Of a stretch of 64,000 nt of DNA, positions 29,006 through 49,034 are shown in pieces. Below the pieces are notes generated by a model, which saw nothing but the letters and a program-made list of their open reading frames with translations, did no database searches and was not told the origin of the DNA. Source of the stretch: Oculina patagonica (taxonomy: Eukaryota); NCBI RefSeq assembly GCF_052425735.1, contig NC_135768.1, positions 17,236,001 to 17,300,000 of the forward strand. The letters are read 5' to 3'. A program made the position numbers and the translations under genes. Position 1 is the first letter of the stretch; each line of letters opens with the position of its first letter.

Positions 29006-30329
29006 CGGTCATTCCTAATTATTATTTTATTTCTCACTTTTTGGAACTATCCATAAGTTAAATGAAAAACAACTCTAACGTACGTAGAATAATTTAAGGG
29101 AACCAAGCTGTCACCAAAGTGTCACAAGACTACTTGGTTGGGTACTGATTAAGGTTAAAATATTATTTAATAATATTTTAAAAATTACTAAATTATTGAA
29201 TAGGCATGAAAGATCGCCGTTATGCCTGCAGTGAAGTTTCCTACCAGTTGGCGGGACAACAAAAACGCTTAGTTAATTATAGGTGCATAACGCAAATAAA
29301 CCGTTGTGACGCCTTGCTAAATTTATGCGCCTGCCTGTCTGCAAGGGCAACCGCAGCGAAAGTCACATTTTGCTGCCGATTTTCACTTCCATCGGCAACA
29401 AAATACACTATCTTCTTGTTGTCGAGACATGAACTTTATCTTCAACAATCGGTGCTGGACATATAATTCACATATAAAACAGAAATTCTGGTTACGATGT
29501 AAATGGAAGACAACTTTTTGGTTTATTCCGTTCCGAATAGAAATTCTCGTAGCATCATTTCCACTTCTCAGTCCGCATTTCTCCTGTTTTCAAATTGAAT
29601 ACATGTTTCCTAAACGGAAGTTCCCAACCGAATTTCTTTATTTTTTTGCAAATGGTAAACAACCAAGTATTACCTACTTGAGTATTTTCCTTGTTCGCTT
29701 CGCCTATCTACTGAAAAACACATAATTGACCAAAAATGATTATGTCTTCAGTCAATCTTCTCAATGCTGCAAAATAAAGGTTACGTTTAACACGATGTTT
29801 TAGTTGAAAAGATAAAAAAATGTCTCGAATTTGGTTAAAACTCGAAAACAAAATTAGCAATCGAAAATAAATGTCAATGTTTATTTTCATACGTATTTTA
29901 TCCCGTGAGGCGTATCACGTCGAGAGCGTAACAATATCCCCGATATCTTTTAGGTAAATAACTACTTAAGGAGTATTCACGAGGCACTCGCGAGAGACGC
30001 AAACACAACTGCTATATTTTAGCCTACTGCTGGAAGGCTTATACATTAAAAAGGTTAAGTTCTTCCTTAAAAGTTTCTTGCTTGTTGAAAGCACTCTTCT
30101 AACATAATAAAAAGCTATAATTACATGTGAAAGGGAAACTAGAGACAATGATGAGCTAATTTAAAACCCACGCAATTTTGCATTTGACATGAAACTGCCA
30201 ATCGTTGAAAAGCAGCTGTTTCGAACCTGTTTACTAAAAGCTGTGCAAATTAAAAGCTATTTCTACAAATGCGTGAATACAAATTGATACTATGTAAAAC
30301 GGATGCAGAGACTGTGTTAACGGAATATC

Positions 30330-31138
30330 ATGGCTAATGCAACATATTTATTAAGTTCTGCTTCGCAAAACTATACGACGACTAATTCTTCAACCTGTCA
30401 AACTCTTCAACCTTTTCTGGATATAGAAGCCAGAAAGGATTTACCACAGTTTTACATAATATCTTCAATTTCGGCCTGTGTTGTTGTCTTTATAATGTGC
30501 TTCACAACGCTGCTTTTTAATATGGTTGTCATTTTAGCAATATGGAGGACACCCTTGCTTCATCAACCAAGAAATGTTCTCCTCTGTTCCCTGGCAGTTT
30601 CCGACTTTTTCGTTGGTTTAACAACCCAGCCTTCCTTTCTAGCAGCAGAAATTTCACTTCTTCTTGGAAACATGGAACTGTACTGCTTGGCAGTGTTTAT
30701 TCATTTTTACACTAGTTGGATGTTCAATGGGGTTTCATTCCTAACGCTGTCAGCCATTAGCTTTGAGCGATATCTCGCCCTGCGTTTTCACCTTCGATGT
30801 GCCGAGTTAATAACAAACACCCGCGTGTTCATTACGGTGATTATTTACTGGTCGATATGGGTTACGTGGATAACGCTTCTGTGGTTTTGGGCGACAAGCA
30901 AACTTCTGACCCACATACTTATTGCCCTTTGCATTTTGATAACAGCAATTGACGCCTGGTGTTATTTTATAATTTACAAAACTGTCAAAAGGCACAACAA
31001 ACAGATTCAGGACTCACAACAACAAACCCATCAAAGCATGGTCCGATATCGACGCACAACAAATACAATGATTATTCTTATTAGCGCTTTTCTCCTAAGC
31101 TACTTCCCCTTTATCGTCACTACAGCAATAAGCGCTTC
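30330..31138 (+). pseudogene. GPCR subtype C copy 3, 5' part (TM1-TM6), interrupted by a 17.4-kb nested insertion
   Basis: Collinear with C1/C2/C4 up to TAISAS; resumes at 48505 after the CTTC duplication. Confidence 0.92.
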
Positions 31139-31862: not shown

Positions 31863-32075
31863 ACACACATATACAGGAGTGGTTTTGGCACAAATCGAGA
31901 CAACTCGCTCGGCTCGCCCGGGCTCGCCTCGCTCCTTGTCTCGATTAGTGACCAAAACCACTCCTGTATATGTGTGTACAAAAATAGCGAGCGGCAAACA
32001 AAAATCTCTGCGGCTTGAGCGCTCAAAAATATCAAGCTGAATTGCTGTGCCAGAATTAATTCCTATTGAACAAAT
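31863..32075 (+). repeat. Left terminal inverted repeat (213 bp), starting with a 115-nt hairpin (31863-31977)
   Basis: Reverse complement of 47927-48139; arm ACACACATATACAGGAGTGGTTTTGG-CACAAATCGAGACAA pairs with TTGTCTCGATTAGTG-A-CCAAAACCACTCCTGTATATGTGTGT. Confidence 0.95.
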
Positions 32076-32100: not shown

Positions 32101-35100
32101 ATGTCTGCTGCAAGTTATTCGCAAGAAGTTTTGCAACAACTCTTGAAGGAAATTCGTGAATTTGAAAGAAAAACTCAAAGAAACGAAACTTTTTTACTGG
32201 CCCAATCCGATTTTAACGAATGGCTACGCGTGTGGAAAATGACCATACCAGAGGGTGGCCGTGCCAGCAAAGACCTTTTTGTATTTCAAAAGAAAACAAA
32301 AGGAAAGTTTATTGATTTGGTAGAGAATGAAATAAGAGATTTGAAAAGCGTAAAAGTAAGTTTTGAGATGAAAATAAAATTTACAAAAGAAAATTTTGAG
32401 ACTGGTTTAACACAAGAGATGGAGCATTATTTTAAAGAAAAAGAACCGCACGTTTTTAACGAACATAATAAACAACAGATAAAACAAGAGTTCGATAGAT
32501 TTATTGAAACAGCAAAGGGCCAAATTGAGGCTTGGTCAGAGCGGGGCTCAGGGTGGGTTCTTGAAAGAATAATGGCAGCGTACTTGAATGTTGCACGCTA
32601 TCAGCCATTGAAAGGAGGAACTTACTTACCCCTCCCAGCCAATTTGGCAAACAAGAAAGCAATCATTAACGTGCGAAACAGGGATAACGAATGTTTGAAG
32701 TGGGCTCTAAGAGCTGCTTTATTCCCACCAAGAGACGGAAAAAACTTGCAAAGAACAAGCAAATATCCGGTTAACGACGGAATTAACTATGAAGGAATTG
32801 TCTTTCCAACGCCTGTAAAACAGATTGACAAGCTTGAGGCACAAAACATAAACCTCGCAATAAATGTGTTCGGCTGGGAAGACAATCGTGTGATTGTGCA
32901 CAGAATAAGCAAAAAAGAAAAAACAATTCCTCGTATAAACTTTATTTTAATTGAGTCTGAAGAAATTCAGCACTATTGTTATGTAAAAAGAGTAAGCGCT
33001 TTACTTTTTGATCAGAGCAAAAGGTGTTGTAAAAAACACTTTTGCATGATGTGCTTGACCGGTTTTTCAAGAGCGGACTTGCTCGAGAACCACGAAAAAT
33101 ATTGCAATGGCATGAACGGCAGGCCGACAAGGATCGAGATGCCGGAAGATGGGGAAAACACCCTTTTTTTCCAAAATCATAACAAACAGATGAGGGCGCC
33201 ATACGTGATATATGCCGACTTTGAGGCATTGATAAGAAAGATTGAAGGCCGCGAGCGTGGCCCAGAAAGCAAACAAAAAAGCTACACAGAAAAGACAGAA
33301 AAGCATGAGGCATGTGGTTTTGCTTACACAGTTGTAAGGAGTGATGGCAGAAACAAACGACCAGTGGTTTACAGAGGTGAAAATGCTGTTGAAGTGTTTT
33401 TGAACTGTCTTCAAGAGGAAGAGAAAACAATAAGAAATAGTTTGTCATTGCCAAAACCTCTTGTGATGACTTCAGAAGATTGGGTAAAATTTAAAAATGC
33501 AACTGATTGCCATATTTGTGAAAAAAGTTTGATAAAAGATTACTTTTTAGACTCACTGCCAGTTTGGGAAATCGAACAAGAATATGCAGAACCTGAATAT
33601 TGCGGCCAATCTCATAAAAAATGTTTCTACACAGAAAAGAAAAAACATTTTTATTGTGAATACGAACAAAAATATTACAATTTTTTCTTAAAAAGGTTAA
33701 CAGAAGAAGAAGACAAAGAAGATGCACAAAAACAGGAAAACTGCTTCTTTTGTGGCAAACCTTTACTTCAGAAAAACTTCAGAGATGTTGTAAAGGATCA
33801 TTGCCACATCACAGGCAAGTACCGCGGAGCCGCGCACAACGCATGCAACCTGAAAATGCGAATAAAACCAAAAACGGACCAAATACCAGTTGTATTTCAC
33901 AACCTGAGGGGCTATGATGCACACCATTTAATGCAAGCGATGTCGAAGCTGTCGCAAGCGACACAGAAAGAGGTGAAATGCGTCGCCAACAACATGGAGA
34001 AATACATTACATTTTCATTTGGTGGTCTGCGTTTTATTGACAGCTTAAACTTTCTACAAGGAAGCCTCGATTCACTTGTAAGCGCAACACCGAAGGAGTC
34101 ATTGAAAATAACAAAAGTCATATCAAAAATAAACAGTGAAAAAAATGCAGAATTTGGGAAAAAATCAGAAAATCATAAAAAAGCAGAAATAGAAAAAAAT
34201 GCAGAACTTCTTTACAAAAAGGGGGTTTATCCATACGAGTACATGGACTCATGGGAAAGATTTGAAGAAACAAGTTTGCCAGACAAAAAAAAGTTTTACA
34301 GTAAGCTAAACGATGAACACATTACTGACGAAGAATACGAGCATGCAAAAAGTGTGTGGAAAACTTTTGGATGCGAAACTCTTGGAGATTACCACGATTT
34401 GTACGTTAAAACTGACGTAACTCTTTTGGCTGATGTTTTTGAGAACTTTCGAAACATATGCCAAGAAAAGTATGGCCTCGATCCAGCTCACTATTTTACA
34501 TCGCCTGGCCTTTCTTGGGACGCACTCTTGAAAAAGACAGGCGTGCAGCTTGAGCTCCTTACAGACTCAGAAATACATCTCTTTGTCGAAAGGGGAATAA
34601 GAGGAGGTATTTCCATGGTAAGCAAGAGATATGCCAAGGCAAACAATCATTATGTTGAAGGCTACGATCCAAGCAAGCCAAAAAAATACATAATGTACCT
34701 CGATGCAAACAACCTTTATGGGTGGGCAATGAGCAAGCCACTGCCAAAAAGTGCTTTTAGATGGAAAAGAGTTATGCCGAATGAAAAAGAAATAATGAGA
34801 AAAAAAGAGTTTGCAAAAACCGGCTGGATATTGGAGGTAGACCTCGAATACCCTGCAGAACTGCATGAAGAGCACAACAGTTACCCTTTAGCTCCTGAGA
34901 AAAAGAAAATAGATAAAGACTTATTTTCTCCTTACCAAAAAAAATTAATAAATGACCTTGATATGGATCCACCTGACAGTGAAAAGCTCGTGTTGACTCT
35001 TGAGGACAAAAGTAATTACGTTGTACATTATCGAAACTTGCAGTTTTATCTGAAACAGGGAATGAAACTAAAACATGTACACAGGGTGTTAGAGTTCGAA

Positions 35101-37198: not shown

Positions 37199-37624
37199 TT
37201 AAAGAAACCGAAAGGCAGCGTACCCAAGTGCAAGCGCGCCAGCGCCAACGAACATAAGTTCACCTTGTTTCTGCTGCTCGCTTGGCTGATAAAAATCAGA
37301 AAACTTTGGCTCTTTTGGAGGAATCATTTGCTTGTCAGGATGTGCCTGGTTGTAGAGTTTGAAAGCGTAGTCAGTGTTAGTGAAGTTCTGTTTGGCCTGC
37401 TCTTTTATTTCCGCGTTGGTTTGTATCCAGTCGAGGAGCTTGGTGCGGTCGCGAGAGTATTTCGCGTAAGCTGCCTGGTAAGCCTCGAGAGCTTTGTCGT
37501 GTCTTTCTTTTTCTTTCAAAGCAGCATCATCACCACCACCCAAAGCGCGAGCAAGGTAGTTGCCACCAATGAAAGCAGCGGCGTTTAAGATCGCTCCGCC
37601 AGCCATAATAGCGATGCTTGCCAT
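37199..37624 (-). CDS. Viral hypothetical protein, 141 aa, with hydrophobic N- and C-termini
   Basis: ATG-initiated, tightly packed; TAATATAAGAAC upstream; Gly/Ala-rich hydrophobic N-terminal helix and C-terminal FVGAGALALGYAAFRFL. Confidence 0.8.
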   Translation of the reverse strand: MASIAIMAGGAILNAAAFIGGNYLARALGGGDDAALKEKERHDKALEAYQAAYAKYSRDRTKLLDWIQTNAEIKEQAKQNFTNTDYAFKLYNQAHPDKQMIPPKEPKFSDFYQPSEQQKQGELMFVGAGALALGYAAFRFL

Positions 37625-37659
37625 TGTGTGTCTTTGTTCTTATATTATGCGAATTTTTT

Positions 37660-37878
37660 TTAATTGGTTGGGAGGATTTTTTGGTCCTCGAGATATTGTT
37701 TTAGTGCAAGACTGCCTGTCATGACGGCTGTGAACTTTACATAGTTCATAAAACTGCTGCTTGGGTCGGATGTAAAGTTTTCTTTCACAACTTTTTTGGC
37801 AGCCCAGCCGATTCCGGCGGCTAGACCTGTAATGGTGGCTGCATCCATGAGTGTTTTCACGAGTTTGTTGTCGGACAT
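37660..37878 (-). CDS. Small viral amphipathic/membrane protein, 72 aa
   Basis: Two short hydrophobic helices (ATITGLAAGIGWAA; FTAVMTGSLAL); co-oriented in the packed block. Confidence 0.75.
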   Translation of the reverse strand: MSDNKLVKTLMDAATITGLAAGIGWAAKKVVKENFTSDPSSSFMNYVKFTAVMTGSLALKQYLEDQKILPTN

Positions 37879-37932
37879 GACGGTAGAACTTAGTTCAGTA
37901 TAAAATTAAAAAAAAAACATTTAATTGAAAAT

Positions 37933-38109
37933 TCATTGTTCCCCTTCTTCTTGAGCGCTTTCGCGCACTTTCACGAAAATATCTGGGTTTTTTGCAATCC
38001 AAACGATTGTTTTGACGCACTTTTCCGTGAAATTTATCCAAACCAAGCCAACCGTTGAAACTGCAGCAACGGTTAACATAAACTGTTGGATGTCAGGGAC
38101 TTTCCACAT
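37933..38109 (-). CDS. Small single-pass membrane protein, 58 aa (MWKVPDIQQF...)
   Basis: TAATAAAATG start context; hydrophobic FMLTVAAVSTVGLVWINF; fills the gap between neighbours. Confidence 0.6.
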   Translation of the reverse strand: MWKVPDIQQFMLTVAAVSTVGLVWINFTEKCVKTIVWIAKNPDIFVKVRESAQEEGEQ

Positions 38110-38150
38110 TTTATTATAAAATGATGAAAAAATATTTAATTGAAAGTTTA

Positions 38151-38672
38151 TTAATCCATCGGACGAATTCCTCTTTTTGGTTGCGGAATTTTCGATGATG
38201 CGCTGATTCGCTGCCGCTCTGCAGGAGCCTCTTGAGCTGGCTCGGGTTCTGGTGCCGTGCCTTTGGCTGGGTGGGTTTTGCTCTTGATAAAGGCTTTGAT
38301 GTCTTCGCGTTTGACATAAGTTGTAATAATTGCAACGCCAATGCCCAGCAAAGAGATCCATTGATTTGTGCTTAGACCGCTGGATTCCGGCGGAGACTCG
38401 GTCGGAGCTGGTTCCGTTACGGGTGGAGTTACATTTCGCTTAGCAGCCGCAGATTTCTTTTCCTTTTCTTTTGCAATTATGGCAGCGGCCTCGACAGCAG
38501 CTTTTTTCTGTGCTTCACGAGCCTGTTTTGTTTTTTCAGCTGCAAGCTTGCCAGCAGCCACTCGCTTTGGATTTTTGGCAGGTTTTGTTGCAGGAGTTGT
38601 TGAAGTGACTTGTGGAACGTTTTCTTGAACAACTGCAGGTTCGCTCGGTATTTGTGTTTCAGGGTCCGCCAT
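38151..38672 (-). CDS. Pro/Ala/Lys-rich viral protein with KNPKRVAAGK motif and one TM helix, 173 aa
   Basis: TAATAAATG start; low-complexity basic region; WISLLGIGVAIITTYV hydrophobic segment. Confidence 0.8.
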   Translation of the reverse strand: MADPETQIPSEPAVVQENVPQVTSTTPATKPAKNPKRVAAGKLAAEKTKQAREAQKKAAVEAAAIIAKEKEKKSAAAKRNVTPPVTEPAPTESPPESSGLSTNQWISLLGIGVAIITTYVKREDIKAFIKSKTHPAKGTAPEPEPAQEAPAERQRISASSKIPQPKRGIRPMD

Positions 38673-38786
38673 TTATTAGAAAAAATAATATATTTAAATG
38701 AAAAATGCTTAGCAAACTTTTTTGGTCAGCATTTAATGAGCATTGTTCAGTAATTACTTAGCATTTTCTTAGCATTGCTTAGTAAT

Positions 38787-39346
38787 TTACTCAGGAAGAT
38801 CTTTATGCTCGCTTTCTAGAGTCGCTTGTGGTGCTGTGCTGTAATCAATGTGCTTTGCCGTTATCAAAGCAACAGAAGCTGGAGAAGAAACTTGCCGTAT
38901 TTGAAAGACAAACCGCCGACAAGATTGGAAAGCTCGTTGTTGATGATGTAGTCATTTTTAAGCTCTTTTTGCAAAGCTTCAATATTTTTTAAGGGCACGA
39001 ACAGACTTGCGGCTTTCGTAAAAAGAGTGAGCGCGCTGTCGATAAGATTTTCTGTGGTCTTGGCCCCAACATACGCTTCGTACCTCGTGAAGTACTTTTC
39101 GACGTCTTTGTCGGTCAAGCGCTTTACCTGATCGTGAGTTAGCTGCACACCGATTGCTTCTTTAGACTTGCCTGTTGAAACAAGTCTTGCAAGCTGTTCA
39201 CGTAAAGCTGGAATGTCAGGTCCCGCTGCTTGCATCTCTGACGGCATACTGCCTGGTTCAGGTTCAAGCAATTCCATTACGGACGTTTCTAACATAATTC
39301 GTTCACTTGCAGTGATATCGGTGGAAGTTGCGAACGGGTCAGCCAT
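38787..39346 (-). CDS. Viral hypothetical protein (160 aa as read; probably ~186 aa with a frameshift near 38885)
   Basis: TAATAAATG start; an alternate frame continues PASVALITAKHIDYSTAPQATLESEHKDLPE* to 38787. Confidence 0.7.
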
Positions 39347-39367
39347 TTATTACTCTAAAAAATATGT

Positions 39368-39967
39368 TCAATAAAAAAATTCTGTGCCGTAAGGGTGGCG
39401 ATGAGAAATAACAAGATGCGAAAACTTATTTTTTTTCAGCTTTGAAATGACTTCTTTGTAATCTTCATGGGAAAGTTCGCCAGCGTAATCCTCAAAGATT
39501 GCCTTCGTGGTCTTGGCAGAGGGGGTGTAAAAGAAAACGATTGCCGCAACATTTTCGCGGAATGAGGCTGTAATGCTTGTCATTTTTTGAGTCAGCACCC
39601 ACACGCTCAAGCCTGCATGGCGAGCAGAGAAAGCAAGATTCACCAACTCCCCCGTTCGCCCTTTCACATCTTTAGAAGCAGCGCAGTCGTCGAGGATGAT
39701 AAGCGTGTTCGCACCCTCAAAAAGAAATCTTGAAAGCTTTAACCAAGATTCAACCTCGTGCTGCTCGCAAATGAAAACAAAAAATCGAAGATCTTCCTCA
39801 GCAAAGCGATAATAAGTCTTGTTGTGCGCGAAAGTCGGGCATATGAGCACGATGTAGTCAAACTTGCCTCGGAAAGGGCCACAAAGCTGATTGACCACGT
39901 ACCTTGTTTTTCCTGAGTTTGTTGGTCCCACAATGAGGGCGTTGAAGGGTATATTGGCAGGATCCAT
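39368..39967 (-). CDS. A32/FtsK-HerA-type genome packaging ATPase
   Basis: Walker A GPTNSGKT, Walker B IILDD, then ARH and VLTQ motifs typical of this family. Confidence 0.93.
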   Translation of the reverse strand: MDPANIPFNALIVGPTNSGKTRYVVNQLCGPFRGKFDYIVLICPTFAHNKTYYRFAEEDLRFFVFICEQHEVESWLKLSRFLFEGANTLIILDDCAASKDVKGRTGELVNLAFSARHAGLSVWVLTQKMTSITASFRENVAAIVFFYTPSAKTTKAIFEDYAGELSHEDYKEVISKLKKNKFSHLVISHRHPYGTEFFY

Positions 39968-39998
39968 TTCAGAACAGAACTTCGTTTGCGTTCTTATA

Positions 39999-41252
39999 TT
40001 ATAAAAGCACAGATTCTAACTGCCTGCCAATTATATTCATTTGGGCGTCGCTGATTACGTAAATGTGGCAGTTCAAATTACCTGAGCCGCTTGTTTTCCT
40101 CTCTAGCTCAAGCTGGACACCGTCCTTTGTGTTCACAAGGCGCTTGCCGCTTCCGTGCATCGAGTGGTCAGCCATGGAACGCAGATCAATCAGAAGGCCG
40201 AACTTGTCTTCTGTGTAAAACTTTTGCAGGGTCATGTGCTGCGTTTTATTTTTTTCTTTCATGTAGAATCTTTTAACTTCTTCCCATATGTCCATTCCTT
40301 CGATGCCGTTGTTGTACAGCATGTTTGGCGAGCCGTTGACAGTGACGCTTACTTTTGTAAGGTCTGGGTTAATGTACTTTTCCGAGATCCTTGCACCTTT
40401 GGCATATTGCTCTATAAAAAGTAGCAAGATACCTTTTAGGGACCTCCTCTGAGGGTTGACCTTAAGATTCAGACGTGTGTCGGATCCTTTTGCAAAAGTA
40501 ACAACTTCGGCACGCTGGATGTGGTCGTAAGCGAACTCTTTGCCGCCCGAGTAAGCGCTGAACGCCTCATCTGCAATTTCCTTGCTTCTTATCATTTCGT
40601 ACTCCAGCTGTATGTTTGTCAGCTTGTATTTCAGTTTTGTTGCATCTGAGCCTCTGACAACATGTTCGGCTGCCGCGAGCTTCAGTTCGAAAACAAGATC
40701 GTTGTATAGTGCCTGTGGATAAAATGCTCCGTGGTCAGTTAGAATCTGGTGATCCAGACGGATGCGGTATTTATTTCCATATAGCTCATTCAGCTTTTTT
40801 TCTGCTTCGACTCCTGAAGTTTTCTTATCGCCAGCATTTGAGCGAATTTTGTTGAGGTCCTCGCTCTGAATGCCCTCTGGCACCCTGTCGTCGCGCTCCT
40901 CCTGCGAAAGGGAAAAATCTTCGAATATTTTGTAGATGTCATAGCCAACCGTGTCCTGCATGACGGTGCCTTCGTACTTTACAACAAACTTGTCGACCAG
41001 AGCTCGGCTGACGTTGTCAACCAGAAAGTTGTTGGCATGGCCTCCGCTCAAGTCGATGTTGAAGCGCAGCGCCAGCGAGCCAGGCACAATGACCTCGTTT
41101 TCGTTCAGCTTTGGCACCGAAACATACAGAGTTTCCTCTGGATTGGCTTCAGTGCGGTCAAAAGTGATTCGTTTTACAGCGCGCTCGGCTTTCAGTGCGC
41201 CAAGTATTTTCTCTGTGCGTCCCGGTCGAAGGTTTTCTTGAACAGCAGCCAT
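39999..41252 (-). CDS. Putative double jelly-roll major capsid protein, 417 aa
   Basis: Size, alternating hydrophobic beta-strand pattern (LYVSVP, LALRFNI, LVFELKL, IQLEYE, ILLLF, LLIDL, CHIYVISD) and position next to the ATPase. Fold assignment is inference. Confidence 0.75.
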   Translation of the reverse strand: MAAVQENLRPGRTEKILGALKAERAVKRITFDRTEANPEETLYVSVPKLNENEVIVPGSLALRFNIDLSGGHANNFLVDNVSRALVDKFVVKYEGTVMQDTVGYDIYKIFEDFSLSQEERDDRVPEGIQSEDLNKIRSNAGDKKTSGVEAEKKLNELYGNKYRIRLDHQILTDHGAFYPQALYNDLVFELKLAAAEHVVRGSDATKLKYKLTNIQLEYEMIRSKEIADEAFSAYSGGKEFAYDHIQRAEVVTFAKGSDTRLNLKVNPQRRSLKGILLLFIEQYAKGARISEKYINPDLTKVSVTVNGSPNMLYNNGIEGMDIWEEVKRFYMKEKNKTQHMTLQKFYTEDKFGLLIDLRSMADHSMHGSGKRLVNTKDGVQLELERKTSGSGNLNCHIYVISDAQMNIIGRQLESVLL

Positions 41253-41317
41253 CACTCGAAAGGTTTTATTGTTAAATTGAAAAGTTTAAATTGAAAATAT
41301 ATATATATAATTACGCG

Positions 41318-42681
41318 ATGGCAACAGGTGGTGGTGATTTTGGCTACGAGGACCCTGATTTAGACCGAGATCTTGACCATGACGGTGATAATGACGGTTA
41401 TGATGATGATGATGAACAAGAGGTCAACACAACCGGGCGATTTCAGCCAAATATGGCATCAACATTCTACCATGATGGTGAAGAACATGAAATGCAAACA
41501 ATGCAGCACGAACAGAGCGGGCTGCCTGATACCTCCTACGACGAAACACCTTTGCTTGGCAGTGCGAAATCAATGAGCGAAAAGGCATGGAATGCTCTAA
41601 AAGGGGTATTTCCAGAAAGCTCATCAACAAACCTTGAAGCCTCTTACAGTCATAAAGGGCAGGATTACAAGTAAAAATGGTCGGAGCTGGTAAAAAATCA
41701 TATGACCTTTTCACCACCAAAAGGGGTACAGGTGGTGAACAACAGCTAAATCCAAGTCTTACAAAAGAAATAAAAAATGCACTCGGAAAGTCCATTTTTG
41801 TATTAAAGGAAGAAGTTCAACAACAACTGGCCGAAAAAGAAAAAGCACTGGAACAATCTGTTTCTCTAGCACAAGAACAGGAAAAAGTTAAAAATGACAT
41901 GGAAGAAATCAGAAACCAAATAAGACAAATTGATGAACAGAGAACCGCTCTTGAGGATAAACATGGTAATTTGGATAAAGAAGAAATTCAAAAACTAAAA
42001 CAGCAAAAGAAAGACCTTGAAAAACAACATCAAGAAAAAAGAAAGAAACTGGAACAAATAAGCAAAACAGCAAAACAGACGCCAAAATTAAAAGAAGATA
42101 TTCAGAAGCTCACAGATGAAAATAACAGATTAAATGAAACCGTGAGAGAACTTGAAGAAAAAATGAACACAGAAGCCCTCAACGAACTAAAAGAACAAAA
42201 AACAGAACTGGAGCGCCAAAATGCGGAAGACAGAAAGATTATAGATGATGAGAATGCCTCCACCACTGACAAACAAGCCGCGGAAGAAAGAGTTGCTGAA
42301 AGAACCGAGGAGCTCGCACGTTTGCAAACACAGATTGCAGAAAGAGAAAGAGCGCTTCCACTTCGTGAGAGGATCAAAGAAATCTTCAAAAAAAATGGCG
42401 TGACAGTAACAGCAATCTTTCTTGCTGCTGGTGTCACGATTGGTGCTGTAATTGGTGCCATTACAAACTCTTTGAAGGCTACCGGCAAAGCGTTGGGGAA
42501 AGGCTTAAGTGATGTTGGCTCAAAGGTGGCATCAGCTCTGCCCGGTCTTATTGGCTCGATTGTGAGCTTTCTTTTCAAAACCGCTGGTCAAGTAATTAGC
42601 TTTCTTGCAGAGCACACCTGGCTGCTTATACTTGCTGCGGTTGCTTTTCTTGTTGAAAGATACATCAAGAAGAGACGTTAA
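41318..42681 (+). CDS. Acidic N-terminus, long coiled coil and C-terminal amphipathic/TM protein; read as two ORFs (41318-41674, 41677-42681), probably one frameshifted gene
   Basis: ORFs abut with a 2-nt gap; the ORF2 frame is open upstream (LQVK-M); heptad-rich E/K/Q segment followed by hydrophobic helices. Confidence 0.7.
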
Positions 42682-44393
42682 CGCATAAGGGCGTAGAGCA
42701 AAGCTGCAGCTCCAACCGCACCAACAGCGATAGTTGCTTTGTTTATTTCGTGTGTATCATTGACTTCAACCTTTGTAGCTTTAGCGCTTTGCGCGCTTTC
42801 AGCTTCAGCACCTTCGGTGCTCGTTGGTGCCGTAGTTTTTTTTGTGTCCCTTTGTGACTCCTTGTGTATAGGATTTGAAGGGTGGCTGTTTGGTGGGTTT
42901 ACCTTTGATGGTCCTCCGGCCATCAGTTTAAGAGCTGCTTTTTTTGTTGATTTATTAACATCATTATTCAATCCTATTTTCATTCCTGCTACAGCCTGCT
43001 TCAGCTGATTGTTGTAGCCGACAACGCTTTCTGTGTTTATCACCATACTACCAGGCATCAGCCAGGCACCAGGGCAGACAGCAAGGTTAAGCCGAACCTT
43101 CGCTTCATCGATAGAAAGTTGGTATCTTTGAACTGACTTTGCCAGATCTGGTTGCCTTATAGCGTCTTCAACCAACACGAGGAACTCACTTTGAGCCTCC
43201 TTTGCGCGGCCGCCTGTGCCAAGTATGCTACTTCGAACGTTGACCTGCGAACCCAGAATACAGTAGACAAAAGCCTCTATCGACTGGTTTACTCTCGACA
43301 AACCTGCCTGAGTCAGCCCTTCTGCGGCGTTAGGACAAAACCAGTCTGCCTGTGCATATGCAGCGTCGTCTGGCTCGATATATTGAATTAAGTTACCCTT
43401 GCTTGCAGCTCCCCCTTCGTCCGAAAATTTATCGTAATCGGGGTATTTTGCTCCAGAATTTTTTGGTCCAATGTTAGTAAACCAGATATAAACATCACCA
43501 AGCCCATGATTGGCACCTCTTGTGAAACGAAAATCGCTTGACGGGTCGACACCGAACTCAGCGCATATTCTTTTATACGAAGCCACGTCGTACTTGTTGT
43601 CGAACTGGCTAAACGTTGGGTCGCCTGGCAAGGCGCTTACGCTCTGAATTCCACCCATCTGAAACAATATTCGCCTGATTGTGAAATAAACGTGAAAGAG
43701 GTAAAAATTACGCACAACAGGTGGCAAACTGAGAGCTGAGTGTTCTTCATCAAAAATTTCACGACTTATCCCACTGCCTGTTGTCGCGCACCAGACAGCA
43801 AAGTTAAGTTGTTGAGGCCAGTAGCCAATATTTGGGCTAGCAAGCCACCTTTTTGACTCTTTTCCTGATGTATGCTTCAGTTTTGTTTTTTGAAAAATCT
43901 CTCTTAATTTCGTTGTGAAATATTGATCTGGTGTGACGTAGATGTTGATTTTGCTGTTAAATATTTTTTTCAAACTCGGTGCGGCTTCGTGAAATCCAAC
44001 CGCGGGAATTGGTAAAGATGCGCCTTTTGCGCCGCTTGGTGACAGCTGTTGTGGAAAACCGCCTGAAATTTGATTCACCCCCAGTGCTTTTTTCATCTCT
44101 GGGCTCCAATATTTGCTGTCAGAGCCAAAAACATTTATCAAATGGCCTTGCTCTGCCTTGTAATAAATGTCTGCCGTTGCTGTGTGGTTGTACGCGAACT
44201 CAACCTGTGCAACAAATTTTGTTCGGTCAGCGTTTGGATATTTTGCAAGAAAAGGTTTCCATGCCTTGTCTTTTGCCGCTTCAGAAATTGTAGTTGCTTC
44301 TGGGGTTTTCATCCACTTCATAAAATCTCTTTCTTTGGAATCAAGAAAAATTGATTGAGAAATGTCATCAGCTCTCGGAATAGGCGGAGCCAT
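42678..44393 (-). CDS. Viral hypothetical protein, 571 aa, with C-terminal membrane anchor
   Basis: Long ORF with TATAAAATG start; Trp/Cys-containing core (WPQQLNFAVWCATTGSGIS); terminal IAVGAVGAAALLYALMR. Confidence 0.85.
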   Translation of the reverse strand: MAPPIPRADDISQSIFLDSKERDFMKWMKTPEATTISEAAKDKAWKPFLAKYPNADRTKFVAQVEFAYNHTATADIYYKAEQGHLINVFGSDSKYWSPEMKKALGVNQISGGFPQQLSPSGAKGASLPIPAVGFHEAAPSLKKIFNSKINIYVTPDQYFTTKLREIFQKTKLKHTSGKESKRWLASPNIGYWPQQLNFAVWCATTGSGISREIFDEEHSALSLPPVVRNFYLFHVYFTIRRILFQMGGIQSVSALPGDPTFSQFDNKYDVASYKRICAEFGVDPSSDFRFTRGANHGLGDVYIWFTNIGPKNSGAKYPDYDKFSDEGGAASKGNLIQYIEPDDAAYAQADWFCPNAAEGLTQAGLSRVNQSIEAFVYCILGSQVNVRSSILGTGGRAKEAQSEFLVLVEDAIRQPDLAKSVQRYQLSIDEAKVRLNLAVCPGAWLMPGSMVINTESVVGYNNQLKQAVAGMKIGLNNDVNKSTKKAALKLMAGGPSKVNPPNSHPSNPIHKESQRDTKKTTAPTSTEGAEAESAQSAKATKVEVNDTHEINKATIAVGAVGAAALLYALMR

Positions 44394-44433
44394 TTTATAT
44401 TAAAGATTTATTTTTCAAAAGATAATTATAAAG

Positions 44434-45129
44434 ATGGTTGTGCTCACTGTCACCACAACAGAAAATCCTCACACTGTTTATTTTGACCAGCCTATTCCAA
44501 AACCAAGCTATATCCGGCTTTTAAGTTGTTCTCTTTACAACAGCTGGAATAGTTTGGAAAAGGATGGAATAGTTTTTTATAAACAAGCGAACAAGGAAGA
44601 GAAGGCGCGTTATATACGGCAAGGAAACTACTCACTCGATGACATTGGAAGTATTTTTGAAAAAGGATTTCCAGAGAAAAACATGTTTTCTGTAACAAAA
44701 GGCATTACAGGTCGTTCTTTGATAATAAGAGCAAAAGAGCCCAATTTAAAAACTATTGGACTAAATGAAAGTCTTATTAAGTTCTTTAATTTGCCTGGGT
44801 TTGAGAATCACGCAAGCATTGAAAAAGAATATTTTGAAACATTTGAGATAAATAATGTTTCAAATCCTAAAAATTACTTTATCGACTGTGACCTTATCGA
44901 CAAGCAACAAAGCTTGCTAAATGGTAAGCCAACAAGCCTTTTAGCGTTTTTTGACATACGTGGAAAACCGTATGAAAAAGTTTGTTACCAAAATACACAT
45001 CTTAACGTCTTGCGCGACGTTTCTGCTGAAGAAAATGTATCATCTCTGACTCTTTCGATTAGAGATGAAAATGGAAACCCATTCGATTTTAACGGCACAA
45101 ATCTTACATATGAGCTGGAATTAAATTAA
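44434..45129 (+). CDS. Putative single jelly-roll minor capsid (penton) protein
   Basis: FDQPI..IRLLSCSLYNSW N-terminus, FIDCDLI..LLAFF, and C-terminal LTLSIRDENGNPFDFNG.NLTYELEL pattern typical of Polinton/PLV minor capsid proteins. Confidence 0.8.
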   Translation: MVVLTVTTTENPHTVYFDQPIPKPSYIRLLSCSLYNSWNSLEKDGIVFYKQANKEEKARYIRQGNYSLDDIGSIFEKGFPEKNMFSVTKGITGRSLIIRAKEPNLKTIGLNESLIKFFNLPGFENHASIEKEYFETFEINNVSNPKNYFIDCDLIDKQQSLLNGKPTSLLAFFDIRGKPYEKVCYQNTHLNVLRDVSAEENVSSLTLSIRDENGNPFDFNGTNLTYELELN

Positions 45130-45152
45130 ATTAAATACAAAAATAAAATTTT

Positions 45153-45854
45153 ATGTATACGACCATGTCATCTGCTAATGTTCTCCCGAGTGCCCCTGAT
45201 TATGGTGTTAGCGAAGAAAACAGCGTAAAACACGCGGAAACCCAAACTTTATATCCTGTTCTGCCGCAACAGAATGACTTCCGTTTGCAAAAAGCGAATG
45301 AAGTTTTGAAATATTTAAGCGAAGAAGTTGACCACTATCGGCTGGTTGCAAAAAAATACAAGCGAACAAAGACAATTATCAACTACGCTTGCTTCATTGC
45401 TGGTGGCGTTTCTGGTGCCCTTTCAGCAGGGGGGGTTGGTGCTGCAATGACAGGGATTGGCTTACCTGCGGCTCTTCCGATTGGCATAGTCGCTGCTACG
45501 TTCGGTGCCAGCGCTGCAGTTTTAACCGGTTTTTACAAAAAACTCGAGCCCAAACTTATTAAGCACTGCAAAATCATGGCCCTTGCCATGTCAAAGTTTG
45601 ATACCGTCAACCGAATTCTTTCCAAATCTCTTGTTGACGGCAAAATAACAGATGCTGAGTTTCAGAGCGTTCTTAATGAGAAAGAGAGTTATGAGATTCA
45701 AAAACAAATATTTCGTAAGGGCACACTTCCAAAAGAAAGTAAAAAGCAAAGAAGTCCTGACATTGAACGGCTGAGACAGGAGATAAAAAAACAAGAACTG
45801 CAGAAATTAAAAAAACGTCTTGCAGCCGAGTCGAAATCAGATTTGAGAAAATAA
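45153..45854 (+). CDS. Viral membrane protein with a Gly/Ala-rich two-helix hydrophobic hairpin (start may be 45165)
   Basis: KKYKR precedes ~55 hydrophobic residues; C-terminal DGKITDAEF and coiled coil. Confidence 0.82.
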   Translation: MYTTMSSANVLPSAPDYGVSEENSVKHAETQTLYPVLPQQNDFRLQKANEVLKYLSEEVDHYRLVAKKYKRTKTIINYACFIAGGVSGALSAGGVGAAMTGIGLPAALPIGIVAATFGASAAVLTGFYKKLEPKLIKHCKIMALAMSKFDTVNRILSKSLVDGKITDAEFQSVLNEKESYEIQKQIFRKGTLPKESKKQRSPDIERLRQEIKKQELQKLKKRLAAESKSDLRK

Positions 45855-46171
45855 ACACTGGATTTCATCTGAGTGTGCAAAAAAATAAATATAACATTTG
45901 AGGCTGTGTTCTTTTTTTTCCACGATCCACGATCCACGATTCTGATTTTCCCAAAGTCCAAATCCCCCTCAGCCTGCCTGTCACGCTCTGACTGCGACAA
46001 AATATTTTAGCGGCCGCCAGCGAAAGACGGGTAACACGCATTTATTTAGGTGAGAGCGGGGGGTTATTTGACTTTTTTTTTTTTGCTTGGGAGCCGTTGT
46101 ATTTATTAATATATAAGCAATCAATAAACAAAACAGATGTGCAAAGTAAAAAATAATTTTATTCAGTTGCT

Positions 46172-46694
46172 AAGTTAAATGTTCGTTGACAACGGCGGAC
46201 ATCTATGGCCACGGTATCCAAGGTAAATTGTTCGTTGACAACGGCGGACATCTATGGCCACGGTAACTAAGGTAAATTGTTCGTTGACAACGGGGACATT
46301 CATGGCCACGGACAGGTAAATTGTTCCTTGACAACGGCGGACATCATGGCCACGGTATCCAAGGTAAATTGTTCGTTGACAACGGCGGACATCTATGGCC
46401 ACGGTAACTAAGGTAAATTGTTCGTTGACAACGGCGGACATTCATGGCCACGGTATCCAAGGTAAATTGTTCGTTGACAACGGCGGACATTCATGGCCAC
46501 GGTATCCAAGGTAAATTGTTCGTTGACAACGGCGGACATTCATGGCCACGGTATCCAAGGTAAATTGTTCCTTGACAACGGCGGACATTCATGGCCACGG
46601 TATCCAAGGTAAATTGTTCCTTGACAACGGCGGACATTCATGGCCACGGTATCCAAGGTAAATTGTTCCTTGACAACGGCGGACATCTTATGGC
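46172..46694 (+). repeat. Tandem array of ~11 copies of a 49-bp unit inside the virus
   Basis: Unit AAGGTAAATTGTTCGTTGACAACGGCGGACATTCATGGCCACGGTATCC with few variants; contiguous, no spacers. Confidence 0.95.
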
Positions 46695-47709
46695 AGCGCG
46701 GCGTCTGTCCTTTGATGACTTGACAAGTTTTGGTCAATTCGGGTTACGCGTAACCCATTTGCATTCCAATTAGGCTTGTAACTTGGCCGATTTTTGTCAA
46801 GTTCGGCAAAACGCTTTAGTTGTATCAGGCTATCGTTAGACATCTACAAATGAATCATTTCGATAAACTGAGTTAAATCTTCTTAATTTTGATCGAAAAA
46901 GGTTTGATAAACGTCTTTAAGCTTCCGATATACTTAACCGATTGCAATAAAACTTCACGCGACCAAGCATCTGATTGTTGTCCGTAATTGCTTCGGTTTC
47001 GTGAAGCGAAGGCACGAATAGCTGATGTTAAATATTATAATCGGACCCTCGTTTGTCGTTTCCAAATGATTCATGTCCGTAAGCTGTGTCTTTGCTTCTT
47101 TTTCAATGAAGGTTTGATAAACGTCTTTATACTTCGGCCATGCTTGCTTATGTAATACAAAAAAGCTTATGTGAATAATATAAAGTTATAATTTTAACTG
47201 TGATTGGTCACAAAAGACGTCATTACATCGGGAAATAACCTATTAACTAAAAATAGTAATGACGCTTGGTAAATAAACTTACCGTGATCTTATATTGTTC
47301 TTTTATGTGCTAGAAAGTTCTCAGCTCAATATTTGCATGTGAGTTATATTGTTGTTGAATAAATAATTCGCAAAAACACATGCGATTTGCTTTATTTTAT
47401 CCAAACTTTTACTCCTGCTTGAAAGGAGAATAGCATTTTAAGTCGTTAAAGGCATACGCCAAAAAAAATATATATCCTAGTGCAGGTTTAAAAGTTTTCC
47501 TGCTTGACCAAGCATGACAATATATACACGTCAGGGGGTTTTCCGGTTTCTGCTTGCGGGGTAACCATACATTACGGCTAATTATTCATGTTTCGCTTCG
47601 CGAAGCAGCCGGTTTGATGTCTTCTCTTTTGGACAACCATTTTTTGTGTCTGTAAAATTTCAGTCAAAAAAACGTTTTTGCACTTTGTCAGACAATGATT
47701 TGCATGTTT

Positions 47710-47928
47710 TTAACACGCGTTGTTTGTCAAAAAGTTTGCAAGAAGCTTTTTGTCAACTGATTTTAACAATTCGATGGTTTCTTCTCTTATGAAAAAGTTT
47801 TCCTTTTTTGCATTTTTATGGTAATTAGGACGCATAATGTCTTGTTCTTTTGTGTTGTTTGAGATTTTTTTTGGGCATGTTGATATGATTGATTTCCTTC
47901 CTTTTCCCATTTTATCTTTATTGGGCAT
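47710..47928 (-). CDS. Possible small basic protein (72 aa, MPNKDKMGKGRK...) starting at the inner edge of the right TIR
   Basis: ATG formed across the TIR border; Lys-rich; mirrors the position of polB at the left TIR. Confidence 0.4.
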   Translation of the reverse strand: MPNKDKMGKGRKSIISTCPKKISNNTKEQDIMRPNYHKNAKKENFFIREETIELLKSVDKKLLANFLTNNAC

Positions 47929-48139
47929 TTGTTCAATAGGAATTAATTCTGGCACAGCAATTCAGCTTGATATTTTTGAGCGCTCAAGCCGCAGAGATTT
48001 TTGTTTGCCGCTCGCTATTTTTGTACACACATATACAGGAGTGGTTTTGGTCACTAATCGAGACAAGGAGCGAGGCGAGCCCGGGCGAGCCGAGCGAGTT
48101 GTCTCGATTTGTGCCAAAACCACTCCTGTATATGTGTGT
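47927..48139 (-). repeat. Right terminal inverted repeat (213 bp) with terminal hairpin 48025-48139
   Basis: Reverse complement of 31863-32075, with no mismatch seen by eye. Confidence 0.95.
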
Positions 48140-48268: not shown

Positions 48269-48504
48269 GAAGTTAGAAGAATAAACCGCTGTTGGAACCA
48301 AGCTGAGTTGTTGCTGTTGCTGTCCGTTCAGTTCGTGGTTAGATCCCGGTACCCAAGAGTGTAACGGCTCTTCCTTGCAAGCGAGTGCCCCATTTGAGTC
48401 TAATCTTCCCCGCAATTATCGTCGCAGTTGTCTCGTTAACTCAAGTTCAGAGTTCGCCCGTTTCCCCCATCGCACACACAAGAAAAACTCTACCGTTACA
48501 CTTC

Positions 48505-48697
48505 GCAATCGAAGGAAGACATGAGGACATCGGCGGCTCACTGTCTTGCCGTTGTGGTCATTTTTGCAAACTCTACAGCAAATCCGTTGATTTACTTCTG
48601 GCGAGTGGCCGAGCTTCGCGAAAGCGCGAAACAAACTTTTAGGAAACTTCATCCTAAGAATGTGAAGCAGGAAGACGTGGAGTTAGATACAAGATAG
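48505..48697 (+). pseudogene. GPCR subtype C copy 3, 3' part (ECL3, TM7, C-tail)
   Basis: QSKEDMRTSAAHCLAVVVIFANSTANPLIYFWRVAELRESAKQTFRKLHPKNVKQEDVELDTR*, open and in frame with the 5' part once one CTTC is removed. Confidence 0.92.
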
Positions 48698-49034
48698 CTC
48701 TGGTGCTAAGGTTTAGGTGTACACATTTGGCACCTTTATAGGACCGTAACCAGACTTCTTCGTTAAAACATAGACGAGGCAAAAGTCGCGAGTGTCGAAG
48801 GCACTAGCCGCTAGCGGGGCCTAGAAAGAAAAAAAAATGAAAAACAAGAAGCTCAGAGACACTATTTTCAGCTTTTTCATGAGGTATTTCTTCAAAAAAA
48901 TCAATCAGGTTCAACTGGGGATCATTTTCCAACCTCAAAGTATTTTTTCTAACACATATTGGGTTAAAATCTAGACGAGACAGGTGCCTCGTCTTGCCTC
49001 TTGGTAGCTACGGCCCTGCTTTAGTCCCGTCTTA

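Follow-up and report, generated by a model that had tools for sequence, protein, structure and literature searches.

Predicted end-anchored membrane proteins are conserved in a coral Polinton without detectable adenain and may point to a virion with an internal membrane

The window analysed here is a stretch of 64,000 nt from the stony coral Oculina patagonica (NC_135768.1 of assembly GCF_052425735.1, positions 17,236,001 to 17,300,000; positions below are counted from its first letter). It holds a Polinton of 16,277 bp whose ends are 213-nt perfect inverted repeats. An initial annotation had placed seven predicted membrane proteins around the capsid genes of this element, had noted the lack of an adenain-type maturation protease and had proposed, by analogy with tectiviruses and corticoviruses, a particle with an internal membrane or else a dedicated kit for membrane penetration. 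The question raised by the locus is whether such a gene set belongs to a virion with lipid beneath its shell. No Maverick-Polinton virion has been seen so far (bioRxiv 10.64898/2026.06.19.733378), and a membrane in Mavericks other than the nematode elements is stated as an open question (PMC10748475). With terminal inverted repeats (TIRs), a family B polymerase, an rve integrase, an A32 ATPase and a double jelly-roll capsid protein, the element is a Polinton/Maverick in the broad sense. The reading we prefer, with a probability of about 0.4, is that in this member of the Polinton-3_NV lineage conserved end-anchored proteins link the assembly of the capsid to a host membrane, which would give an internal-membrane particle, as in iridoviruses.

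All seven open reading frames (ORFs) were found where they had been described. Transmembrane (TM) helices were sought in hydropathy scans, as peaks of 19-residue Kyte-Doolittle windows (KD19) compared with those of shuffled sequences. The polymerase, integrase, ATPase, capsid protein and penton candidate peak at 0.41-1.12. Much higher values were obtained with the 334-amino-acid (aa) part of the ~454-aa gene (2.29, reached by 1/300 shuffles) and the ORFs of 233 aa (1.92, 17/300), 141 aa (1.89, 0/300), 58 aa (1.70, 25/300) and 571 aa (1.69, 56/300). Peaks of the 173-aa (1.23, 28/300) and 72-aa (1.21, 70/300) proteins, and of a 160-aa ORF that is an eighth, weak membrane candidate overlooked in the initial annotation, are intermediate between those of the enzymes and capsid proteins and those of the hydrophobic set (1.69-2.29). 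When the columns of family alignments were shuffled, the observed peak was reached in 1/2000 trials for the 454-aa family, 13/2000 for 141 aa, 24/2000 for 173 aa and 42/2000 for 233 aa. For 571 aa the figure was 5/2000 with an alignment of 45 rows and 165/2000 with one of 11 rows, whereas the capsid protein gave 1862/2000. Five proteins, those of 141, 58, ~454, 571 and 233 aa, are good candidates for a firm hydrophobic helix as judged from their sequences. The helix of the 173-aa protein is short but conserved and that of the 72-aa protein is amphipathic only, so that most, though not all, of the seven predictions survive the scans.

These ORFs are not peculiar to one copy. The genome has at least 100 near-identical capsid genes: of 403 candidate loci, the best 100 each reach 96% identity or more, and the element is a high-copy, recently spreading coral family. 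Ten sister copies taken from the list of the best 100 loci all have both TIRs (10/10), measure 15.3-17.0 kb and show the gene order of the window element. The window copy is damaged: its 160-aa gene is truncated and its 454-aa gene is split, so that the ~454-aa ORF described initially is two frames here (41318-41674, 118 aa; 41677-42681, 334 aa), but it is a single ORF of 405-493 aa in 8/10 sister copies. Gene order is also kept in the longer stretches among metagenome relatives with 59-73% capsid identity (80 kept of 327 stretches with a related capsid). The nonsynonymous rate (pN) was below the synonymous rate (pS) in every pair and every gene tested. The pN/pS ratio was 0.16 for the 72-aa ORF, the lowest of the ORFs tested, 0.20 for the 141-aa ORF and 0.26 for the capsid gene, with pS near saturation, 4-56 pairs per gene and a single pair for the 58-aa gene. 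Conservation, synteny and purifying selection bear out the expectation that the set is shared with relatives.

The best-supported member of the set is the 571-aa protein, which is predicted to be a conserved tail-anchored protein without a fold match. Its model is confident (pLDDT 87) and shows a folded body joined through a disordered linker to a terminal helix. A C-terminal KD19 of at least 1.6 is found in 92/97 near homologs (at least 520 aa) and in 83/90 distant ones (at least 400 aa, ~32% identity), shorter matches being excluded, and in 0/114 capsid homologs. The family is large, with 2,741 clusters at 50% identity and E<=0.001, many of them partial. Fold searches with the whole protein, in which a small known domain could have been missed, gave nothing above noise (best BFVD E 0.019; best Z 5.3 and 4.5), and the ESM Atlas had no usable match. 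A Gln/Cys/Cys/His cluster is conserved in the first half of the 571-aa family, with the motif present in 80/90 distant homologs; it might bind metal or mark an active site that has escaped recognition. Conservation within the 454-aa family is highest in its C-terminal hydrophobic module.

The hydrophobic set stands out against other Polintons of the same genome. With one threshold, 5/14 ORFs of the window element are hydrophobic versus 1/15, 1/16, 1/17, 1/16, 2/20 and 2/21 in six adenain-bearing elements, and the excess of membrane proteins over these co-resident elements is real. The latter have one hydrophobic ORF in common, a SLATT-like relative of the 233-aa protein (E 4e-5 to 7e-5, 4/6). 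The six elements belong to two families (L117-L134), which also carry DUF5679 and SLATT-like ORFs.

Pfam and profile searches agree with the initial annotation that a stand-alone adenain ORF is missing. A profile built from the co-resident adenain-type ORFs gave a best E of 2.1 in the window element, the 10 sister copies and 80 metagenome loci (15,550 six-frame fragments, 636,388 bp). In cross-family controls 2/2 were recovered at E 7e-6 and 2/4 at E<1e-6 (of the other two, one was weak and one was missed), so that a very divergent protease could have escaped. PF00770 found nothing in this genome, although adenain-type ORFs are present under its cut-off; it is insensitive and was not used as evidence. 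Between polymerase and penton, 15 loci have no unexplained gap above 581 bp, except for one broken gene. An adenain hidden in the variable gaps was considered and rejected, the extra ORFs in these gaps being a hydrophobic ORF of 45-128 aa and two others, of 124 aa and 96 aa. The ~96-aa ORF, aromatic-rich and conserved, lies between the ATPase and 160-aa genes in one subgroup of relatives (L042, L051, L059, L064, L095 and others).

The lack of any profile match in 636 kb indicates that the protease was lost lineage-wide. That it was deleted only in the window copy, the hydrophobic ORFs being chance, might have seemed attractive given two broken genes and single-sequence shuffles that leave chance open for 4/7 ORFs. 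However, 15 loci have little room for the gene, relatives too are without detectable adenain, and the ORFs are under purifying selection; the sister copies, metagenome relatives, profile search and pN/pS refute a loss confined to this copy, and we regard the explanation as a whole as practically dismissed.

Cleavage in maturation could nevertheless persist with the help of co-resident adenain Polintons, a host protease or a Cys/His domain of the polymerase, a scenario compatible with the other readings. Adenain-type ORFs are indeed encoded by six co-resident elements. The polymerase N-terminus has a Cys/His pair (C198, H291; Cys in 15/15 loci, His in 14/15) as described for the vOTU domain, and the cluster in the 571-aa protein is likewise conserved. 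On the other hand, the cleavage proposed for the vOTU domain is that of the terminal protein (PMC11161782), the model of the 571-aa protein has no papain-like match in a whole-protein search, which a small domain could escape, and the profile of the window family's capsid has no match at E 0.05 among the capsids of the six elements, a distance that makes shared substrates doubtful. We consider such cleavage improbable. By the same capsid comparison and the lack of adenain, the element is, as judged from sequence, not an adintovirus in the strict sense.

A missing protease and an internal membrane are logically independent. Absence of the former does not imply the latter, because Polinton-like viruses (PLVs) lack a protease (PMC4642659) and many nucleocytoplasmic large DNA viruses (NCLDV) have one (PMC4028283).

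No signal peptide was apparent on inspection of the ORFs, and the 141-, 72-, 173- and 454-aa proteins contain no cysteines, unlike envelope glycoproteins. The 571-, 454-, 173- and 141-aa proteins would enter the membrane through helices at or close to their ends, in the absence of a signal peptide, and with anchors so placed their bodies should lie on the cytosolic or nucleoplasmic side, the site of capsomer assembly. The 454-aa protein with its long coiled coil and the tethered globular 571-aa protein could then serve as a scaffold and an anchor that connect the shell to the membrane, like the anchor and zip proteins of iridoviruses, while the 72- and 160-aa proteins would help to shape the membrane and the ATPase would fill the particle. 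Entry would occur by membrane fusion or exposure rather than through lytic peptides released by a protease. The SLATT-like 233-aa protein probably has a separate pore or egress function.

End anchors without signal peptides, together with the lack of cysteines, argue against an outer envelope with a fusogen of the kind proposed for nematode Mavericks (PMC10748475); on inspection, none of the element's large ORFs combines a high cysteine content with an N-terminal signal of that type. The membrane proteins might still be non-structural or outer-wrapping, remodelling the nuclear envelope or endoplasmic reticulum for replication, nuclear exit, budding or lysis. A tail-anchored topology with cytosolic bodies also suits egress machinery, as in the nuclear-egress proteins of herpesviruses, and the SLATT-like class of the 233-aa protein has been proposed to serve egress or abortive infection (bioRxiv 10.64898/2026.10.13.758929). 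We think this unlikely: the genes are interleaved with those for the ATPase, capsid and penton in an order that is constant from the coral to an abalone record, and a signal-peptide glycoprotein for an outer envelope is lacking, unlike in nematode Mavericks (PMC10748475).

A naked capsid is another possibility. Here the hydrophobic and amphipathic proteins would be internal penetration factors (adenovirus protein VI-like, 'Macc' class), accompanied by a coiled-coil cement, and their release would need no proteolysis. It agrees with this that the N-terminus of the 141-aa protein and the 72-aa protein form Gly/Ala-rich amphipathic helices rather than strong TM segments and that adintoviruses carry membrane-active accessory proteins (PMC8502044, section 3.2). 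Three adenovirus capsid chains occur in the top ten structural matches of the 571-aa model (ranks 1, 3 and 10), at noise level (Z 4.4-5.3); we take them to be protein IIIa. Conserved terminal anchor helices with basic tails, as in the 571- and 454-aa proteins, would be hard to keep soluble in a lipid-free shell, however, and the co-resident adenain-bearing Polintons manage with one hydrophobic ORF. A naked capsid seems rather unlikely to us. As far as sequence goes, a membrane in the particle and a kit for penetration or egress would each fit.

Several points weigh against the internal-membrane reading. Since PLVs also do without a protease (PMC4642659), its absence adds little. The helices of the 72-aa (479/2000) and 160-aa (297-398/2000) proteins do not beat column shuffles, and the 58-aa gene is at its position in 20/28 gap-spanning loci and missing or replaced in 8/28. 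None of the 11 frames checked begins with a Met-Gly myristoylation start, as iridovirus anchor proteins do, and Pfam, PHROG, PDB and BFVD searches yielded no significant homolog of known inner-membrane proteins. The capsid model is of low confidence (pLDDT 59), and an NCLDV-like capsid fold is common in Polintons generally. Finally, holin-like and SLATT proteins are reported from polisuviruses at large, where they have been proposed to serve egress or defence (bioRxiv 10.64898/2026.10.13.758929).

The capsid model places the element nearer to giant viruses than to tectiviruses. In Foldseek it matches the capsid of Singapore grouper iridovirus (SGIV; E 3e-13), and Z scores are 20.1 with Paramecium bursaria chlorella virus 1 (PBCV-1), 18.4 with faustovirus, 16.4 with African swine fever virus (ASFV), 13.2 with mavirus, 12.2 with PRD1 and 11.0 with PM2; identity is at most 13% among the 50 BFVD matches listed. 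IMG/VR scans with capsid and ATPase queries found no relative, and profile searches of PDB sequences with the capsid, 571-aa, penton, 454-aa and 233-aa proteins gave nothing significant. In the ESM Atlas the 233-aa protein matched unnamed clusters at 0.93-0.94, under the recognition level. The 231-aa ORF is probably the penton, as its profile matches a capsid-adjacent ORF of 252-256 aa in 4 co-resident Polintons (E 1e-6 to 2e-3). The only Pfam match of the polymerase is to its endonuclease VII insert, not PF03175, and its match to the co-resident polymerases is weak; the integrase is 28-30% identical to the co-resident ones (E 1e-15 to 1e-18).

Table 1. Features of the Polinton, with positions in the window. 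Names in quotation marks are those of the PMC11071296 supplement.
Feature	Position	Strand	Remarks
Left terminal inverted repeat, 213 nt	31863..32075		preceded by GTTAA; same 5 bp again after right arm
Family B polymerase (protein-primed), 1356 aa	32101..36171	+	PF02945 E 1e-6; polymerase motifs read in sequence
rve integrase, 330 aa	36181..37173	-	PF00665 E 1.6e-6, under cut-off
141 aa	37199..37624	-	Gly/Ala-rich hydrophobic N-terminal helix and C-terminal anchor helix, predicted; very conserved; 'Fus' (by eye)
72 aa	37660..37878	-	two amphipathic helices, not clearly TM; probably 'Nispumem' (by eye)
58 aa	37933..38109	-	N-terminal hydrophobic helix; accessory
173 aa	38151..38672	-	disordered/basic N-part; one short internal hydrophobic helix, then basic residues; 'Lardeb' (by eye)
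160 aa (186-214 aa in sister copies)	38864..39346	-	two moderately hydrophobic helices; 'Ayleven' (by eye)
A32-like packaging ATPase, 199 aa	39368..39967	-	PF04665 E 1.5e-10, over cut-off
Double jelly-roll capsid protein, 417 aa	39999..41252	-	model pLDDT 59; Foldseek E 3e-13; Z 20.1 to PBCV-1
'~454 aa' gene	41318..42681	+	acidic N-terminus, long coiled coil, C-terminal ~95-aa hydrophobic/amphipathic module, basic tail; 'Cah' (by eye)
571 aa	42678..44393	-	folded body, disordered linker 499-547, C-terminal anchor helix 548-570, predicted; 'Titinmem' (shared motif)
Likely penton (minor capsid) protein, 231 aa	44434..45129	+	profile homology
233 aa	45153..45854	+	SLATT-like two-helix membrane protein; also in protease-bearing Polintons
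Tandem repeat array, 49-bp unit	46154..46735
Right terminal inverted repeat	47927..48139

A few observations concern the element and its surroundings (Table 1). A 5-bp target duplication flanks the window element and is clear at 4/10 sister copies. By its sequence, the outer ~117 nt of each terminal repeat (31863-31980 in the left arm and its mirror in the right) is an almost perfect palindrome that could form a long terminal hairpin. The Polinton is nested in ~1 kb of other inserted DNA (30292-31138, 48501-48702), and its host site is one copy, now split, within a tandem array of single-exon genes resembling G-protein-coupled receptors (unit ~11.3 kb). Elsewhere (L007-L009, C11:13.08-13.10 Mb) three capsid genes spaced 4,785 bp apart represent tandem amplification of part of the element. 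Two metagenome contigs of 14.3 and 15.1 kb (L048, L060) have both ends at terminal repeats; they could be linear genomes that exist free, or contigs that the assembly broke at multicopy ends. The penton candidate and SLATT-like gene (44434-45854 compared with L011-L030) fall into swapped classes, 46-48% versus 92-100% and 42-50% versus 100% identical, respectively, beside neighbours that are 97-100% identical, which indicates module exchange. The endonuclease VII/HNH insert of the polymerase (33700-33860, residues 536-585) is present in the abalone record as well; an HNH insert has been regarded as unique to oomycete and nematode pPolB2 (PMC10748475).

By capsid type, protease absence and a size of ~16 kb, the sequence assigns the window element to the Polinton-3_NV lineage. 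Polinton-3_NV of Nematostella vectensis (Polinton-3_NV / Polinton-N1A_NV clade) is of similar length (16,575 versus 16,277 bp), and 35/58 residues of an N-terminal capsid stretch are identical, as counted by eye on a printed alignment. In a 2014 table it is listed with capsid and ATPase but without penton and protease (PMC4028283, supplement 1); the window element differs in having a penton candidate. The Polinton-3_NV capsid adjoins PgVV/Gezel-14T, outside the Mavpol groups (PMC4028283, PMC11296320), and the passages of these two papers that deal with Polinton-3_NV do not mention membrane proteins. The ATPases from Octocorallia, Hydrozoa and Bivalvia that lie near Aquintoviruses represent the only animal elements outside the main groups (bioRxiv 10.64898/2026.06.19.733378), and the coral family may be that group.

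The same module was recognised by eye, from motifs and gene order, in two records of the PMC11071296 supplement, Meld6842 (BK066732) and MeldLC027333 (abalone). Gene names there are Titinmem, Cah, Hexon, PacK, Penton, Fus, Ayleven, Lardeb, Nispumem and Slatt; none of the 13/13 names of Meld6842 and none of 15/16 names of LC027333 is Adenain. These records differ from the window element in extra 'Glycot' genes and a shorter Titinmem N-terminus. They are absent from the main text of PMC11071296 (0 mentions), and no claim of a membrane particle was found for them. Meld23486 (PMC11071296, Figure 7), considered as a relative, is a different element. In the table of supplement 1 the source of Meld6842 is a pig muscle-cell RNA-seq run with 8x coverage. 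The idea, prompted by the name only, that 'Ayleven' might correspond to poxvirus A11 led to no poxvirus family in the Pfam matches of 18 intact homologs.

The lineage and its lack of a protease are thus already on record, and the membrane kit itself appears undiscussed. A proposal of an internal membrane for the Polinton-3_NV lineage was not found in a literature search outside of which most subscription papers lay, and the text of a stony-coral survey uses 'membrane' nowhere and 'protease' once, in an unrelated sense (PMC11131425). What is new is the conserved kit of predicted tail-anchored proteins, the difference in this respect between the element and the co-resident Polintons, and a 571-aa protein whose fold has no match. 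A coral family with a fixed membrane kit beside two protease-bearing families without it allows comparison within one genome and predicts clearly what coral virome material should show. Should the membrane be internal, 16 kb of genome would suffice for a minimal membrane-assembly system with a bearing on the origin of the inner membrane of giant viruses. Such a virus would also be the first lipid-bearing one among the small double jelly-roll viruses of eukaryotes, and would connect tectivirus-like ancestors in minimal form with giant viruses that have inner membranes. That the whole lineage is a ~16 kb integrating group of animal viruses building such a virion with its own, structurally new kit is a doubtful extension at present.

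How, then, does the element compare with known systems? PRD1 and PM2 combine a double jelly-roll capsid, an A32-type ATPase and several small membrane proteins with the lack of a protease, and PRD1 replicates a ~15-kb genome with a protein-primed polymerase. The initial analogy with Tectiviridae and Corticoviridae holds to this extent, but they are not the closest model. Their capsids match less well (Z 11-12 versus 16-20 with PBCV-1, faustovirus and ASFV), the window element has a eukaryotic host and an integrase, and no phage homologs of its membrane proteins were detected: PHROG gave only weak coiled-coil and holin matches, and tblastn against phages with the 334-aa frame and the ATPase gave nothing, small membrane proteins diverging fast. 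The tectivirus was accordingly rejected as nearest model. None of the tests made marks the element as a tectivirus relative; it is a member of a known, neglected lineage. Adintoviruses and Mavpol groups 1 and 2 (PMC8502044; L117-L134) share a polymerase with a putative OTU-like domain, rve integrase, ATPase and penton-like and SLATT-like ORFs, but have their own adenain, one strongly hydrophobic ORF and capsids unmatched by the window family's profile. PLVs (Aquintoviricetes) resemble the window family in lacking a protease (PMC4642659) and in their PgVV-related capsid; the coral family differs in its polymerase and rve integrase and its high-copy integration in an animal. Iridoviruses, PBCV-1 and ASFV have far larger genomes, many encode a maturation protease, and no sequence or fold homolog of their anchor proteins was found here. 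They nevertheless provide the nearest capsid folds, and in them the shell is joined to the inner membrane by minor capsid proteins that have TM segments; in SGIV three minor capsid proteins are predicted to be membrane-associated and one has been seen in the inner membrane (PMC10090177).

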